A stretch of 19,972 bases of DNA from Fidelibacterota bacterium (GTDB lineage Bacteria > Fidelibacterota > Marinisomatia > Marinisomatales > UBA1611), in NCBI GenBank assembly GCA_018674095.1, contig JABHAX010000200.1, positions 1-19,972 on the forward strand, read 5' to 3'. Shown here piece after piece: positions 4,637-15,983 of this stretch (positions are counted from its first letter, which is position 1; every line of letters begins with the position of its first letter). The translations under genes and the position numbers were made by a program. Under the pieces are notes generated by a model. That model was not told the DNA's origin. It did not search any database and worked only from the letters and a program-made list of their open reading frames with translations.

Positions 4637-4784
4637 ATAATTCTTTATTTTTTTTACAACTCTAAATTGCCGGTTTAATAGTAAATAATTTATATTTCCC
4701 CTTCGTGAAACTTCGCGATCTTAGCGGCTGAATTACTGAGGTTGATTTGTTTTAAAATTACAATCTGAATACACTCGTTTTATA

Positions 4785-10102: not shown

Positions 10103-10184
10103 ATTTAATTGCAACTAAGGCCCAAAGCAGAAAGGTTTATACAATTTTGCGACTTCTGTACCTTTTGTGTCTATTCTATTTCAA
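10103..10184 (-). repeat. Structured intergenic spacer element, copy A (moaD-moaE spacer)
   Basis: It shares three parts with copy B. The first is a 13-nt box CATATTTAATTGC including the start codon (10100-10112). The second is a 30-nt segment TTGCGACTTCTGTACCTTTTGTGTCTATTC (22/30 identical to copy B). The third is TCTATTCTATTTCAA (10170-10184). It also has a weak hairpin, 10128-10134 with 10153-10158, followed on the minus strand by CUUUGGG. Confidence 0.6.
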
Positions 10185-10423: not shown

Positions 10424-10515
10424 ATTTAATTGCCACAAGGGCTCAAAAACACAATGATATATTTACCATTGTAACTTTTGTGCTTTTTATGGCTATCCAT
10501 TCTATCCTATTTCAA
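10424..10515 (-). repeat. Structured intergenic spacer element, copy B (moeB-moaD spacer, running into the last codons of moeB)
   Basis: It has the same 13-nt start box as copy A (10421-10433). TTGTAACTTTTGTGCTTTTTATGGCTATCC aligns to copy A. TCTATCCTATTTCAA (10501-10515) overlaps the moeB stop codon. The hairpin ACAATG (10451-10456) / CATTGT (10467-10472) is followed on the minus strand by GUUUUUG. Confidence 0.6.
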
Positions 10516-11470
10516 TAATTTCTGTTTGATGATTTTTACCATCATAGATTAATAATTTCCCCAACAAATTGGGTTCAATTCCCACAATCAATTTTACTGC
10601 TTCTAATGCTTGTATATTGCCAATAATATTCGGGAGCATACCCAAAACGCCGGCGTCCGCGCAAGTGTCCCCACCCGATGGTGGGTTTGGAAATAGTTCA
10701 CGATACCCCGGGCTACCATCTACATTTAATACTGCAACCTGACCTTCCCAACGATACAATCCGCCATAAATCATTGGCACATTTGTTTCTTTTGAAAATC
10801 GGTCAATCAATTGTCGAGCGTCAATATTGTCAGTGGCATCAATGACAATATCACAATTTCGAATAATATCCAATCCATTTTGTTCATCCAAATAATCTTC
10901 CACAATTTTAATTGCCGTCACTGAATTAATTTTCTCTAAACTCTCTTTTGCAGAAATGACTTTTCTTTTCCCAATATCGTCTGCTCCATGCAAAGGCTGG
11001 CGATGAAGATTAGACAGTTCTACAATGTCCCCATCTATCAATATCAATTTTCCTACACCAGCAGTTATAAGCGATTGTCCAGCGGGGCATCCCAGTCCCC
11101 CCATACCAACGATAGCTACAGTTGCATTCAATATTTTTTTTTGACCATCCATTCCGACTTCCGGCAAAATAGTTTGCCGAGACCATCGACTTAAATCAAG
11201 CTTTTTGGATTGAAATTCAATCCATGCTTGTGCACCACCCAATAAACTATATGTATCATTTAAATCATTTTCAATAATCATCCTTTCTGTCACAATTCCA
11301 AACTGGCACACCAAAACTTTTTCCCCGACAAGATTGGGCATAATTCCATTTTCAGAAACTATGGTTTCCAATCCATCCATTGGAAATTCAACTCTATGTG
11401 TTGCCGGGCGAACATCGATCACATTGAATTCGTTTATTCGATCATAAAGTTCTTTGGGAGTTATAATCAT
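10502..11470 (-). CDS. moeB: Rhodanese-like domain fused N-terminally to a MoeB/ThiF-type adenylyltransferase
   Basis: The N-terminal ~95 aa look rhodanese-like (VIDVRP..., KVLVCQFG, GGAQAW). They are followed by VAIVGMGGLGCPAGQSLITAGVGKLILIDGDIVELSNLHRQ and CADAGVLG. I use the ATG at 11470, which overlaps the moeA TGA as ATGA; the track's start at 11485 is a GTG. Confidence 0.85.
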   Translation of the reverse strand: MIITPKELYDRINEFNVIDVRPATHRVEFPMDGLETIVSENGIMPNLVGEKVLVCQFGIVTERMIIENDLNDTYSLLGGAQAWIEFQSKKLDLSRWSRQTILPEVGMDGQKKILNATVAIVGMGGLGCPAGQSLITAGVGKLILIDGDIVELSNLHRQPLHGADDIGKRKVISAKESLEKINSVTAIKIVEDYLDEQNGLDIIRNCDIVIDATDNIDARQLIDRFSKETNVPMIYGGLYRWEGQVAVLNVDGSPGYRELFPNPPSGGDTCADAGVLGMLPNIIGNIQALEAVKLIVGIEPNLLGKLLIYDGKNHQTEIIEIG

Positions 11471-12690
11471 TTTATTGATTTCCACGGTAATAATTTCACA
11501 CAGATTTTTTCACCTGCATTTAATGATGATTCGCCGGGTTCAGATGATAAAATACAATTTGCCGCTAAAGATGATGTTAACATATGAGAGCCAACTTTGG
11601 ATGCTGGTTTGCATATCAATTTCCCATTTTCAATCCAGGCATTCCCAAATAAAAAACGTTTTTTAATTTTCTCGCGTGGGAATGACCTTTCCAAAATTCC
11701 TGTTACTTTTTTCGATTCATCTTTACCCATCATGGTTTCAAGCACGGGCCAAGCCCATTCCATAAAACCAATATAAGATGATACCGGATTTCCCGGTAAT
11801 CCAAAAATCAAGGTGGAATTTCCGGTTCCAAAAAAGAGTGGTTTCCCGGGTTTTTGGGCTACTTTCCAAAAATGTTCGGTTACACCCAATTCCAAAAATA
11901 TTTCTCTGACATAATCATATCGCCCCATTGAAACGCCACCGGAAGAGATTACCATATCACAGGATTCTAATGCTTCCGATAAAAATTTTCGAAGTGACTC
12001 TTTATCATCTTTGATTACATTTCGCATGACCAATTCGCCACCAGCTTTTTCTACCAATTCTGCAAACACATATAAATTGAAATTGTAAATCTGTCCTAGT
12101 TTTAATGGATTCCCTGGTTCGATCAATTCATTCCCTGTCCCGAAAATGGCAACTCTCGGTTTTTTAGAGACAGTTACTTTTCCATATCCAAATGTGGCAC
12201 AAGTCCCGATTTCGCTAGGTGTCATTTTTGTGCCTTTCTTAATAAGAATCTCACCTTCTGATATTTCTTCACCCATTCTTCTGATATGTTTTCCGGGTTG
12301 AGCTTCAATCATAATTTGGACAGAATAATCATCAGAAAATCCACTTGAATCTTCTACCATTATGATTGTATCTGCACCCATTGGGATTTGTGCGCCAGTC
12401 ATACATTGAGCGCATTCGCCGGGACCAATTACAACATCCGAAGGCGTACCGGCAGCGCTAACGCTTACCATTTTTAGTGAAACCGGAATTGCTTTTGTTG
12501 CTCCTATTGTATCAGAAGCGCGTACGGCAAAACCATCCATGGCTGAATTATCAAATTGTGGAGATGGAAATGTGGCCACAATATTTTCTGCCAAAATTCT
12601 GTCCCCGCTATTCTTTAAGGAAACCGTCTCTGACCCTAATAAAAATATGTGTTTTTTAACAATCAGCTTTGCTTCTTGAAAGGGGATCAT
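11467..12690 (-). CDS. moeA: Molybdopterin molybdotransferase MoeA
   Basis: 407-aa ORF. Motifs seen: FDNSAMDGFAVR, RRMGEEI, ISSGGVSMGRYDYV, FGLPGNPVSS. It has an ATGA overlap with the upstream TauE-like gene. Confidence 0.9.
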   Translation of the reverse strand: MIPFQEAKLIVKKHIFLLGSETVSLKNSGDRILAENIVATFPSPQFDNSAMDGFAVRASDTIGATKAIPVSLKMVSVSAAGTPSDVVIGPGECAQCMTGAQIPMGADTIIMVEDSSGFSDDYSVQIMIEAQPGKHIRRMGEEISEGEILIKKGTKMTPSEIGTCATFGYGKVTVSKKPRVAIFGTGNELIEPGNPLKLGQIYNFNLYVFAELVEKAGGELVMRNVIKDDKESLRKFLSEALESCDMVISSGGVSMGRYDYVREIFLELGVTEHFWKVAQKPGKPLFFGTGNSTLIFGLPGNPVSSYIGFMEWAWPVLETMMGKDESKKVTGILERSFPREKIKKRFLFGNAWIENGKLICKPASKVGSHMLTSSLAANCILSSEPGESSLNAGEKICVKLLPWKSIK

Positions 12691-13427
12691 AGCATTTCCT
12701 TTAATAAAAATGAAACCGCAATTAATATGATGATGCCCATAATCCTTTGAATCGTTTTTGGATTATACTTCACTGAACCAAAATACGATCCTGCAAATCC
12801 GCCAATTAGAACTGCGCCGATTAAGGGTAACATGAAATCTAAATTAAAGGTACCCGATTGGTATCTTGCCATAATCCCAACCAATGAATTTGCCCAAATG
12901 AACATGGCGCCCGCGGCTGCCGCTTCTTTTTCTGTTCCAAGCCCAAACATAATTATTAGCGGAACAAGATATATTCCACCACCAATTCCCACTGCTCCTG
13001 CAATAAATCCGAGCGCTGCCCCAATCCCAAAGGTCATAACCCATTTTTGTGTATACGATAATTGATATGAAAGAGTCAATCCATTGATGATATAAATCCG
13101 TGCCACCACCAATAATAATGTGCTCATGAGAATAATTTGAAAAATGAATTCCGGTATATCAAGTGAACCGCCAAGATATGCCATGGGGATTGATGTGATG
13201 AGAAAGGGACCAACCAAATTTAATCGGCCATATCCATTGCGCCAAAAATTGATCATTCCAATAAAAGTTACGACCAAATTTAGAGTCAATGATGTGGTGG
13301 GAATCATGATATAACTCACACCCATTATCGCCATGATGGCAGTATAAGATGAGCCACCACCTAATCCTACCGAAGAGTAGATGAAGGCGACAAAGAGAAA
13401 TAATATGGGTAATAAATATTCAGTCAT
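12687..13427 (-). CDS. TauE/SafE (DUF81) family anion permease
   Basis: 246-aa ORF, about 7-8 TM segments. Glycine-rich repeated motifs occur in both halves (VGLGGGSSYT and VGIGGGIYLVPL), as is typical of DUF81. Confidence 0.85.
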   Translation of the reverse strand: MTEYLLPILFLFVAFIYSSVGLGGGSSYTAIMAIMGVSYIMIPTTSLTLNLVVTFIGMINFWRNGYGRLNLVGPFLITSIPMAYLGGSLDIPEFIFQIILMSTLLLVVARIYIINGLTLSYQLSYTQKWVMTFGIGAALGFIAGAVGIGGGIYLVPLIIMFGLGTEKEAAAAGAMFIWANSLVGIMARYQSGTFNLDFMLPLIGAVLIGGFAGSYFGSVKYNPKTIQRIMGIIILIAVSFLLKEML

Positions 13428-13430
13428 TTA

Positions 13431-13461
13431 TGACCACAGAGACATTGAGACACCGAGAAAA
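13431..13461 (+). repeat. Left copy of the 31-nt direct repeat flanking the GxxExxY gene
   Basis: TGACCACAGAGACATTGAGACACCGAGAAAA. 25 of 31 positions match 13857-13887, and an 8-9-nt ACAnnGAG periodicity is visible. It begins 4 nt from the TauE start codon. Confidence 0.7.
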
Positions 13462-13466
13462 ACAAA

Positions 13467-13841
13467 TTATAACACCATTCTTTTTATGCCATCTTTTAGA
13501 ACAGGAACATTGAAATTCATTAACATCCCAACTCGAATTCCTGTCAATTTCATATAAGTTAATAATTGCGCTTCTTGTACAGGGATAAGTGACCCTACTG
13601 CTTTTAATTCAATAATCACTTTTTGCTCTACAATTAAATCAATTAGATACCCAGCATCAATTCTAACTCTTTTATACTCTAAGGGTAACTCTATTTGGGA
13701 TTTGAATAAAACGTCCGATAATTCAAATTCTTTCATTAAACATTTTTCATATGATAATTCAAGTAAACCGGGACCTAAGGCCTTATGGACTTCAATTGCG
13801 CATTTAATAATTTTTCTAGTTAATTCTTGTTCTAATAACAT
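13467..13841 (-). CDS. GxxExxY protein (PD-(D/E)XK nuclease superfamily, TIGR04256/PDDEXK_3-like)
   Basis: 124-aa ORF. It has a GLLELSY (GxxExxY) motif and a D...ELK core (DLIVEQKVIIELKA). AGGAG lies 5 nt upstream of the ATG. Confidence 0.85.
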   Translation of the reverse strand: MLLEQELTRKIIKCAIEVHKALGPGLLELSYEKCLMKEFELSDVLFKSQIELPLEYKRVRIDAGYLIDLIVEQKVIIELKAVGSLIPVQEAQLLTYMKLTGIRVGMLMNFNVPVLKDGIKRMVL

Positions 13842-13856
13842 TTTAACTCCTTTTGT

Positions 13857-13921
13857 TTACCACAAAAACATGGAGACAAAGAGAAAATTCTATATGATTT
13901 TATTCTTTGTGTCTTCGTGGT
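13857..13921 (+). repeat. Right copy of the direct repeat plus an imperfect inverted partner
   Basis: TTACCACAAAAACATGGAGACAAAGAGAAAA (13857-13887) is the direct repeat of 13431-13461. TTCTTTGTGTCTTCGTGGT (13903-13921) is its imperfect reverse complement. The outer ACCAC/GTGGT arms match perfectly, so a long imperfect hairpin is possible. Confidence 0.7.
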
Positions 13922-14936: not shown

Positions 14937-15983
14937 TTAGCCCCCAATTTGTGTCATGGATTCTCGATTATCATTTCCTTGTTTTTGGGCTTCCCAACCA
15001 TCTTTAAATTTTTTCTTCATTGTACCGTAAATCATTTCTTTAATTATCATATCAGTTTTTCCCGTCCGCATCGCATCCCTTAAATTCGTCTCATCTTGGC
15101 TATATAGACAGTTCAATAATTTTCCATCCGCAGTAATTCGGATTCGATTACACTCACCACACAAACTTCGTGAATAGGCAGGAATCACCGCCACTTTTCC
15201 TTTATAATCATTCACTCGAAAAATATGATGTTCTGTTCGTGACCCATCAATGGGCTTCAACGCATCAACCTGTTTTTTTATGTCTGCAACAATATCATCA
15301 GCCCCATAAAATTTTCCTGTCTTCCAAATCTGGTGAGAATCAAATGGCATGAGTTCAATAAAGCGAACGGTGATGTCATTATCTTTGGTTAATTCCACAA
15401 AATCCATGAGTTCATCATCATTGAAATCACGCATTGCTACAATGTTTAATTTGATTGATTGAATGTTGGACGCCAAGGCTTTCTGAAGACTATTCAAAAC
15501 CATATCTAAACCATCACGGCGTGTGATTTTTTTGAATTTATCAGTATCTAATGTGTCAAGGCTGATATTAATTCCTGATAATCCCGACTTTTCTAATTCT
15601 TCAATTCGTTTAGAAAGTAAAAGACCATTTGTGGTTAAATGCACAGATTCTATTCCTTCGCACTGGTGTGCAAACTGAACCAATTCAGACAAATCTTTTC
15701 GTAATAAAGGTTCACCACCCGTAAACCGAATTTTGGAGACACCCATTTTAGATGTTAATTTTATCAGTCGGAATATTTCTTCTGTAGTAAGGAGCTTGTC
15801 TTCACTGCGGAAATCAATCCCTTCTTCCGGCATGCAATAGATACAACGAAGATTGCATTGTTCATTAAGAGCTAAACGTAAATAGTTGAAGGATCGACCG
15901 AAGCGGTCAATAATGGGTGGCGCGGAATGATCCAGCTCACCATTAATTGGGATGGGTGTAATTATATTTTCTATCATTCTCAT
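14937..15983 (-). CDS. moaA: GTP 3',8-cyclase MoaA (radical SAM)
   Basis: 348-aa ORF. It has the CNLRCIYCMPEEG radical-SAM motif, a C-terminal cluster motif (CGECNRIRITADGKLLNC) and a C-terminal GG. Confidence 0.95.
   Translation of the reverse strand: MRMIENIITPIPINGELDHSAPPIIDRFGRSFNYLRLALNEQCNLRCIYCMPEEGIDFRSEDKLLTTEEIFRLIKLTSKMGVSKIRFTGGEPLLRKDLSELVQFAHQCEGIESVHLTTNGLLLSKRIEELEKSGLSGINISLDTLDTDKFKKITRRDGLDMVLNSLQKALASNIQSIKLNIVAMRDFNDDELMDFVELTKDNDITVRFIELMPFDSHQIWKTGKFYGADDIVADIKKQVDALKPIDGSRTEHHIFRVNDYKGKVAVIPAYSRSLCGECNRIRITADGKLLNCLYSQDETNLRDAMRTGKTDMIIKEMIYGTMKKKFKDGWEAQKQGNDNRESMTQIGG

Follow-up and report, generated by a model that had tools for sequence, protein, structure and literature searches.

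The question raised by this locus is why a small nuclease-like gene lies between the genes of a moa operon, and what the repeats around it are. The operon is located in a stretch of 19,972 nucleotides (positions 1 to 19,972 of contig JABHAX010000200.1, assembly GCA_018674095.1, from a Fidelibacterota bacterium), which is referred to below as the window. The gene encodes a protein of the GxxExxY family. An earlier annotation made from the letters of the window (the original prediction) had described it as a possible selfish or mobile cassette bracketed by direct repeats or, alternatively, as an RNA element of the intervening sequence (IVS) type. Here, we compare the locus with its relatives and with GxxExxY loci from other phyla. 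The reading that we prefer, at a probability of roughly 60%, is that the gene is carried in a hairpin by a widespread selfish cassette, which resembles both IVSs and the arrangement of repetitive extragenic palindromes (REPs) with their RAYT nucleases, and that the window contains an old, vertically inherited copy of it.

Family-wide architecture of the cassette

GxxExxY loci were collected in a protein-based scan with one genome per species. The resulting 80 loci span the Planctomycetota, Acidobacteriota, several proteobacterial classes, Bacteroidota, Chloroflexota, Verrucomicrobiota, Omnitrophota, Chlamydiota, Cyanobacteria and Nitrospinota, together with one archaeal metagenome-assembled genome (MAG) of Methanothrix. 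In the architecture as defined here, an arm consists of at least two tandem units of the type CAC(N)(R)(R)G (unit pattern also written as TTCACCAC(RR)AG). With a crude regular expression for the unit, arms were detected on both sides of the gene in 59 of the 80 loci and on at least one side in 72, compared with both sides in 8 of 502 other open reading frames (ORFs) from the same loci. The two flanks are inverted with respect to each other: an upstream/downstream inverted-repeat score of at least 14 was reached at 62 of 78 loci, at none of 78 after shuffling, and in 16 of 78 pairings with the downstream flank of another locus.

This inverted repeat is the defining geometry of the element. The gene is preceded by a 5' arm (ACCAC-RRAG-N-CAC-RRAG...) and followed by the reverse complement of that arm. 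The consensus of the element ends, with slashes at the borders, reads TTC/ACCAC(RR)AG-N-CAC(RR)AG ... CT(YY)GTG-N-CT(YY)GTGGT/GAA. The element measures ~440-500 bp, with a gene of ~375 nt in the loop of the long inverted repeat, and each arm is composed of two to four tandem units of 8-9 nt. Unit types across the loci include CACAGAG, CACGGAG, CACGAAG, CATGAAG, CGCAGAG, CACCAAG and others. The unit is uniform within a locus (0.44-0.47 mismatches per unit, versus 1.39 between loci), and its type tracks the protein clade across phyla and not taxonomy, as none of 2000 permutations reached the observed association.

In a reverse test, metagenomes were scanned for two arm halves 385-415 nt apart, using no protein information. 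A GxxExxY gene is present in 101 of the 120 loci obtained (92 intact and 9 disrupted), and the remaining 19 consist of cargo-less hairpins in nested or adjacent position. Apart from GxxExxY, no cargo family was found in these 120 arm-selected loci, which represent this arm type and this cargo size, and four-helix-bundle genes were absent. The statement in the original prediction that CACAGAG-type repeats flank GxxExxY genes in other phyla is borne out by both scans. Its suggestion that the repeat may be shared by GxxExxY and four-helix-bundle genes is supported for the former and, at this arm type and cargo size, unsupported for the latter.

Homology between non-orthologous copies stops at the outer arm edges: its ends cluster 20-60 nt from the gene on both sides, and almost none are located at 80-300 nt. 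The copies of a Desulfobacteraceae MAG and Lacimicrobium alkaliphilum, for instance, are 79.8% identical over 440 nt and have unrelated flanks. At the level of sequence comparison, arms and gene are shown to be one conserved module that has been shared or transferred between phyla.

The cassettes are nearly always placed between same-strand neighbors and in their orientation. Among 158 cassettes with a detectable downstream arm, a same-strand gene starts within 80 nt downstream in 115 (convergent gene in 8), and a same-strand stop codon lies within 80 nt upstream in 113 (divergent gene in 8). The gap from stop to arm is mostly 0-15 nt, and that from arm to start peaks at 5-14 nt. Cassette sites include trpE–trpG, carA–carB, the junction of an rRNA-methyltransferase gene with a rarA-like gene, methylmalonyl-CoA mutase genes, the position after radA of Bacteroides finegoldii, and the moa operon.

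Some loci have an unusual content. Between methylmalonyl-CoA mutase genes, L067 (686-1630) contains two back-to-back cassettes; a 154-aa ORF is the cargo of the first, and the GxxExxY gene of the second has the opposite flank order, with the 3' arm type upstream and the 5' arm type downstream. Two mutually related, arm-bracketed ORFs of 110 and 74 aa are found in L072 (4006-5102). These odd cargoes of L067 and L072 gave no Pfam, PADLOC or PHROG match. An Omnitrophota MAG (L042, 1489-1848 and 2916-3293) has two GxxExxY cassettes with their own arms within 1.5 kb. In L. alkaliphilum (L346, CP013650.1, 1-6058), nine small same-strand ORFs are followed by a divergent tyrosine-recombinase (Phage_integrase) gene; this run resembles a chromosomal integron array and is located ~4 kb away from the GxxExxY cassette.

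The cassette in the window

Every gene in the moa region of the window is encoded on the minus strand, and the cassette occupies the junction between a moaC/moaB fusion gene (moaCB) and a gene for a TauE-family membrane protein (tauE). The features are, in the direction of reading:

14937-15983, minus strand: moaA
13931-14872, minus strand: moaC/moaB fusion, upstream neighbor of the GxxExxY gene
13903-13921, minus strand: 5' arm, coding strand ACCACGAAGACACAAAGAA, two purine-rich units, beginning 9 nt past the moaC/moaB stop
13859-13887, minus strand: proximal copy of the 3' arm, coding strand TTTTCTCTTTGTCTCCATGTTTTTGTGGT, the right-hand direct repeat of the original prediction
13847-13851, minus strand: Shine-Dalgarno-like AGGAG, 5 nt ahead of the GxxExxY ATG, by direct reading
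13467-13841, minus strand: GxxExxY gene, 124-aa ORF, TIGR04256 and PF13366
13433-13461, minus strand: distal 3' arm, coding strand TTTTCTCGGTGTCTCAATGTCTCTGTGGT, three units, the left-hand direct repeat of the original prediction
12687-13427, minus strand: gene for the TauE-family membrane protein, downstream neighbor of the GxxExxY gene
11467-12690, minus strand: moeA, after tauE
10502-11485, minus strand: moeB, after moeA

Several elements of the original prediction are recovered here, namely the ribosome-binding site of the gene itself, the two direct repeats that enclose a single gene, their 8-9-nt periodicity and the inverted partner at 13903-13921. According to a repeat finder, 13433-13461 and 13859-13887 agree at 24 of 29 positions (83%), and no further position of the window matches the repeat at 22 of 29 or better on either strand. 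None of 300 first-order Markov simulations of the window reached 24 of 29, the simulated maximum being 21. The periodicity is real, with units reading CACAGAG-A-CATTGAG-A-CACCGAG. The degeneracy of the window copies (24 of 29) and the AT-rich genome could speak for a chance or low-complexity similarity in an AT-rich intergenic region. This explanation is refuted by the simulations, the family-wide arm counts and the control of 502 ORFs, and retains practically no probability: the motif flanks most GxxExxY genes in other phyla, and the arms persist in orthologs whose synonymous sites are saturated.

The direct-repeat bracket, in contrast, is not the defining structure that it had been taken for. 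The family rule is an inverted repeat, and the window follows it with a two-unit 5' arm upstream and a three-unit reverse-complement arm at 13433-13461 downstream. Its 5' arm is homologous to the 5' arms at 59-64 of the 80 GxxExxY loci, and the distal 3' arm, which ends 5 nt ahead of the tauE ATG, corresponds to the downstream arm found at 67 of the 80. The bracket is incidental: the 3' arm has been duplicated, and a direct repeat is seen because the extra copy precedes the gene, next to the 5' arm. Folding of the 5' arm with the proximal 3' arm yields -20 kcal/mol (z of -4.0 over the 86-nt stretch, and of -2.8 over the entire intergenic region). As a duplex, these two arms reach -20.1 kcal/mol, which none of 500 shuffles matched, and they form a hairpin of the cargo-less type immediately before the GxxExxY gene. 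Pairing of the 5' arm with the distal 3' arm gives a weaker duplex (-17.4 kcal/mol, a value that 9 of 500 shuffles equaled); the local hairpin is favored.

An identical GxxExxY protein is encoded on many marine metagenome contigs and in one Candidatus Marinimicrobia (SAR406/Fidelibacterota) MAG. No integrase family was found among the called genes within 10 kb (loci L001-L010), and no CRISPR or recombination partner genes near the GxxExxY gene of the window. No rRNA match is present in the window, where the element sits between protein-coding genes of the moa operon. A promoter and terminator scan returned no promoter-like enrichment and no terminator at the cassette. With Rfam at the gathering threshold, the window gave only sub-threshold miRNA-like hairpin matches and no known RNA family.

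History of the moaCB–tauE junction

Orthologous moa operons of Marinimicrobia contain a GxxExxY gene at the identical moaCB–tauE junction, with proteins 92%, 86% and 73% identical to that of the window. These lineages have in common a purine-rich 5' arm ahead of the gene and the reverse complement of that arm behind it. Their flanks display the motif better than those of the window: on the coding strand, L011 reads ACCACGAAGCCACGGAG ... CTCTGTGTCTCCGTGTTTCTGTGGT upstream and TTTTTCTCTGTGTCTCCGTGCCTCCGTGGT downstream, and L018 has the purine-rich form three times ahead of the gene (AACCACGGAGTCACGGAGGCACGGGG...) and the pyrimidine-rich form once behind it. Among lineages with an identical protein, an arm consists of either 2 or 3 units. 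Synonymous sites between the lineages are saturated (synonymous divergence, dS, 1.1 to >2), and the ratio of non-synonymous to synonymous divergence (dN/dS) is 0.07-0.09 versus distant orthologs. Together, these values indicate that the gene has been kept under selection here for a long time and that the copy is old and vertically inherited. The few changes between the window and its closest relative, L015 (92% identical), are mostly non-synonymous (dN/dS ~1.5). They suggest that, in the lineage of the window, the constraint on the protein has relaxed. The arm units of the window are degenerate as well, and in this Marinimicrobia lineage the copy looks immobilized and partly decayed.

The original prediction had proposed a search for an empty site in the moa operons of close relatives, and such sites were found. 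They occur in Marinimicrobia with an equally similar MoaCB (78-83% identical) and no GxxExxY gene. In L224/L225, the moaCB stop overlaps the tauE start (TGATG) and no cassette is present. A spacer of 62 nt with a small palindrome separates moaCB and tauE in L222/L223, and one of 99 nt with a palindrome as in L222/L223 does so in L221, in both cases without the gene. These empty junctions, including the TGATG overlap, show that the cassette is an insertion at moaCB–tauE. Of the mobile cassette that had been proposed, the insertion therefore stands, and recent mobility at this site does not, given the saturated synonymous sites and the shared junction. On the host-protein tree, presence of the cassette is patchy and poorly resolved, and one gain with losses is not separated from two gains. 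Reading of the filled and empty moa junctions, which did not include a systematic scan for direct duplications, revealed no consistent target-site duplication. L018 has CATTGATGG at the left and ATGG at the right of the cassette, which is suggestive only as a trace of duplication. The spacers of L221 (3943-4041) and L222 (3943-4004) hold a different perfect palindrome, AACTTTGCGGAAGTT...AACTTCCGCAAAGTT, containing a CGCAAAG unit; in L221, a GC-rich hairpin is nested in the palindrome, and TTGGAGTA-like units with a period of 8 nt come before it.

A domesticated host gene, for example one for DNA repair or end processing, could also leave such a record; the units would then be expression signals or operators, bound by GxxExxY itself or by some factor of the host, and the patchiness would result from old transfers and losses. 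The low dN/dS (0.07-0.09), the synonymous saturation and the retention of the junction by several Marinimicrobia lineages agree with this explanation. So do the absence of recent transposition among 180 copies, a huge and conserved family (17,299 clusters at 50% identity), and locus-uniform units that track the protein clade, as would be the case if each unit were read by a protein. The explanation is at odds with the unrelated operon sites (trpE–trpG, carA–carB, radA, mcm genes, moa), with the empty sites in close relatives, and with ~80%-identical copies in different phyla whose homology ends at the arms. In addition, the hairpins that are nested or cargo-less have a parasitic look, PADLOC and PHROGs gave no match, and the window copy is relaxed (dN/dS ~1.5 versus L015, with S29L and H89Q). 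We consider a host gene of this kind quite improbable.

The GxxExxY protein

The protein of the window matches TIGR04256 (GxxExxY) over the full profile with 140.5 bits (cut-off 35, E-value 2.9e-41), and a PF13366 (PDDEXK_3) match is precomputed for the identical protein, in agreement with the family to which the gene had been assigned. Its motifs are intact, namely G25-L-L-E28-L-S-Y31, D68, E78-L-K80 and Q92-LLT-Y96, at columns that are invariant or at least 90% conserved. We take E28, D68, E78-x-K80 and Q92-xxx-Y96 to be the RecB/Cas4-type motif set. In the window copy, two residues with a conservation of at least 90% are substituted (S29L and H89Q).

An AlphaFold2 model based on an alignment of 94 sequences has a pLDDT of 96.4, a pTM of 0.89 and the order ααββββαβ (an alignment of 19 sequences gave a pLDDT of 40.8). 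The best fold matches in the PDB are Cas4 SSO0001, lambda exonuclease, LHK-Exo, MGME1 and RecE, all of them PD-(D/E)XK nucleases; tRNA-splicing endonucleases score lower than the Cas4/lambda-exonuclease group. A profile search of PDB sequences with GxxExxY gave no match, so no solved family member was found by sequence, and neither PADLOC nor PHROGs contained a match for GxxExxY. The predicted product resembles a small PD-(D/E)XK nuclease and is most like DNA nucleases. The family comprises 17,299 clusters at 50% identity. In a 2012 census of PD-(D/E)XK proteins, the function of PF13366 is given as 'Unknown', with multiple transfers (PMC3424549). Many representatives of ~270-295 aa (P0361-P0371 and others) hold two tandem GxxExxY domains and may be fused or mis-joined neighboring cassettes.

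DNA or RNA level

The duplex between upstream and downstream arms is strong in canonical copies (-44 to -108 kcal/mol). The mismatches between the arms comprise 90 sense-compatible and 89 antisense-compatible transitions, with no G:U bias on the coding strand. Units in register have no fewer mismatches (0.47) than units off register (0.44), with no register-specific covariation, and the spacers match weakly (40 of 109 versus 28 of 114). Selection for an RNA stem as such finds no support in these patterns, which would be consistent with a protein that recognizes each unit, or with a structure at the DNA level.

These results bear on an element that works at the RNA level. Its stem of ~25 bp would be cut by RNase III as in an IVS, or serve as an intercistronic stabilizer or insulator, and it would release or regulate the cassette mRNA, with the nuclease taking no part in spreading. 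The geometry and size match those of ORF-bearing IVSs of 23S rRNA (PMC4990558), and the duplex energies of the canonical copies, the strong co-orientation of cassettes with flanking genes and arms that abut stop and start codons all agree with such an element. Arms of 24-30 nt fit the substrate length generally known for RNase III. On the other side, G:U-compatible mismatches are not in excess over A:C-type ones (90 versus 89), in-register mismatches are no fewer (0.47 versus 0.44) and the spacers match only weakly. Moreover, no Rfam family matches, and the long-range stem of the window is weak (-17.4 kcal/mol, 9 of 500 shuffles equal). An RNA-level role also leaves unexplained why one DNA-nuclease family is nearly the only cargo. 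RNase III tolerates mismatches, so that cutting by this enzyme would also be compatible with the mismatch results. On balance, we rate an RNA-level element as unlikely. The IVS comparison made in the original prediction keeps its value as an analogy, since the closest described analog is the ORF-bearing 23S IVS (PMC4990558), whereas the RNA-processing role that it had attached to the repeats is unsupported (90 versus 89, no covariation).

Cargo-less and nested hairpins

Two further features of the window are related to the arms:

10432-10493, minus strand: cargo-less degenerate hairpin in the moeB–moaD intergenic region, GCCATAAAAAGCACAAAAG...CATTGTGTTTTTGAGCCCTTGTGGC, with arms of degenerate units of the same family
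4701-4726, minus strand: orphan three-unit arm CGCTAAG-AT-CGCGAAG-TTT-CACGAAG in the intergenic region of a urate-oxidase-N-like gene and EamA

The hairpin at 10432-10493 folds at -23.2 kcal/mol (z -4.3, matched by none of 200 shuffles) and ends with GTGGCAATTAAAT, its 3' end lying 8 nt ahead of the moaD ATG. The moaD–moaE spacer (10103-10180) ends with the near-identical GTTGCAATTAAAT; its structure is not significant. For the orphan arm no partner was detected, and it is conserved in L001 and L007. It directly follows an intrinsic-terminator-like hairpin. The chance expectation for such three-unit chains is ~0.06 per 20 kb, estimated from the regular-expression probability, and membership of this arm in the hairpin family is uncertain.

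The relatives carry similar hairpins in their moa operons, namely at moeB–moaD in L011, at moeA–moeB and moaD–moaE in L018, and at moeA–moeB in L222. These are clearer, CTCTGTG-type counterparts of 10432-10493 in the same or neighboring intergenic regions. The 20 kb of the window contain one degenerate hairpin and one orphan arm as extras, and the relatives have 1-2 more per operon. The genes of the L224 operon overlap throughout, and no hairpin is present there.

Outside the moa operons, a search of IMG/VR with the arm pattern yielded more than 120 stretches, and 113 of 140 convergent arm pairs had loops of less than 150 nt. GxxExxY itself is encoded in none of 50,697 phage records and in 8 plasmid or chromid records. 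The orientation of the neighbors of cargo-less hairpins is uninformative, as ORFs called mechanically cannot be relied on when contigs are GC-rich. L108 (5767-6094) and L046 (225-1654) contain hairpin units in tandem arrays that repeat every ~120-143 nt. The interiors of L263, L285, L326, L104 and L113 have hairpins nested inside CACAGAG-type hairpins. Other short units in tandem (CACGCAGAT, GAACACGGAT, CACAGATG and the complements of these) make up the inner hairpins, a pattern suggesting that tandem-unit hairpins form a wider superfamily whose members insert into one another's loops. With Rfam at an E-value threshold, six hairpin-rich loci gave only sub-threshold miRNA-like hairpin matches.

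Comparison with known systems

ORF-bearing IVSs of 23S rRNA occur in Leptospira, Coxiella, Brucella and Xanthomonas (PMC4990558). The IVS of Coxiella is 428-444 nt long, has a terminal stem of 28 bp that is cut by RNase III, contains an S23p ORF and replaces the tetraloop of a helix (PMC4990558). Like the cassette in the reading preferred here, 23S IVSs are selfish insertions of ~430-500 nt with an ORF of ~120 aa, terminal inverted repeats and a stem of ~28 bp; among the cassettes, the enclosing stem is strong in canonical copies and weak in the window. Both reside in a transcript that tolerates interruption, and both have a sporadic distribution and signs of horizontal transfer. IVSs replace the tip of an existing helix and, in a similar way, hairpins nest here in hairpin loops and some cassette flanks extend the stem. 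The differences concern location, cargo and arms. IVSs lie in helix 9, 25 or 45 of the rRNA, whereas the cassette lies in a protein-coding operon. The ORF of the IVS as described (PMC4990558) encodes the four-helix-bundle protein S23p, which is unrelated to GxxExxY, and the original prediction's statement that GxxExxY proteins were first noted within 23S IVSs finds no confirmation there. The cassette encodes a PF13366 protein, a predicted PD-(D/E)XK nuclease. Its arms consist of 8-9-nt units in tandem, and their consensus is shared by different phyla. Cutting by RNase III is established for IVSs and may apply to the cassette.

REP/RAYT systems likewise consist of a nuclease gene flanked by inverted copies of a short repeated hairpin, which recurs without cargo in intergenic regions, often in operons, and is inherited vertically with occasional transfer. 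RAYTs, however, are HUH/Y1 enzymes of the IS200/IS605 type, in contrast to the Cas4/lambda-exonuclease-like PD-(D/E)XK protein of the cassette. REPs are also specific to a species or genus, whereas the cassette arms follow one consensus across phyla and are built of tandem short units. The element fails defining features of both systems: it is not located in rRNA, its cargo is not S23p and its nuclease is not HUH.

Free-standing homing endonuclease genes share the small nuclease gene, the filled and empty alleles, the compact size and the low harm to the host. They recognize a unique long target, unlike the structure or repeat (hairpin) proposed as target for the cassette, and no near-identical cassettes in different contexts, as homing would produce, were found among 180 copies. 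Integron cassettes with their attC sites are similar in that a promoterless single gene depends on an external promoter and is associated with an imperfect, foldable inverted repeat. They have a single attC 3' of the ORF, with an integron integrase and attI nearby, whereas the element is bracketed by arms and has neither an array nor attC R/L core sites. The direct target-site duplication of insertion sequence elements and miniature inverted-repeat transposable elements was not seen with the cassette, for which no systematic scan for it was made and whose flanks tend to be complementary instead. At the protein level, Cas4, lambda exonuclease and RecE are the best structural matches of GxxExxY and share the motif set E...D...ExK...QxxxY. 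With 124 aa, the GxxExxY protein lacks their Fe-S cysteines and toroid-forming extensions, at an identity of 15-19% and a TM score of ~0.5.

Proposed mechanism and points against it

In the reading that we prefer, the selfish hairpin-borne cassette, which has no detectable promoter of its own, would ride on the transcription of the operon and hence be tolerated. Its outer 3' end, GTGGTGA (GTGGT in the window), located 5-14 nt before the next start, may supply a ribosome-binding site to the following gene. The stem formed by the arms would loop the insert out, or may be cut as in IVSs of 23S rRNA. The nuclease would act at the DNA level on its cognate arms, folded into a hairpin or cruciform, and repair of the break with the arms as homology would copy the cassette into cargo-less hairpins or other hairpin loops. 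The net process would be homing, in an arrangement of the REP/RAYT type.

A number of observations weigh against this reading. Hairpin-rich IMG/VR loci totaling 1.1 Mb contain no GxxExxY gene, and therefore nuclease and hairpins are not always physically linked; the hairpin in the L222 operon is likewise cargo-less, with no cassette in the 6.9 kb of that locus. Across the 180 copies compared, all pairs that share at least 85% nucleotide identity are orthologs by their flanks, and no recent movement is seen. The flanks of 116 cassettes gave no convincing target-site duplication, in an inspection that did not include a systematic scan for direct duplications, and these flanks show extra complementarity at outward positions 4-10 (0.30-0.47, versus 0.23-0.34 for shuffled partners). 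Long vertical retention and strong purifying selection also fit a gene that benefits the host. Finally, the fold matches of the protein are weak (E-values of 1e-3 to 1e-1, TM ~0.5).

A bolder version, which we hold only tentatively, makes the GxxExxY proteins the autonomous nucleases of pan-prokaryotic hairpin elements. The Cas4/lambda-exonuclease-like enzyme would read the arms of tandem 8-9-nt units in the form of a DNA hairpin or cruciform and drive their copying with or without cargo, and the copying would target hairpin loops and intercistronic junctions. If true, this would explain the cargo-less CACAGAG-type hairpins, the nested hairpins and possibly the origin of the IVSs in 23S rRNA, and it would define a class of mobile elements with new enzymology.

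Implications

No published description of the element was found in the searchable literature, the arm sequences are printed in no searchable paper, and the word GxxExxY occurs in only three searchable papers, in one of them in passing. The origin and mobility of IVSs have been a standing question since about 1990. The cassette links multicopy orphan nuclease genes, REP-like intercistronic hairpins and ORF-bearing rRNA IVSs, which are unconnected in the searchable literature. Annotators gain a means to recognize both cassette insertions and cargo-less hairpins. Canonical cassettes are present in the cultured carriers Bacteroides finegoldii (GxxExxY protein WP_032839887) and Lacimicrobium alkaliphilum, and experiments are therefore feasible. 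GxxExxY/PF13366 is one of the large protein families without an assigned function, and a fixed module, with the gene in the loop of a tandem-unit hairpin between same-strand genes, gives this family a concrete and testable biology.

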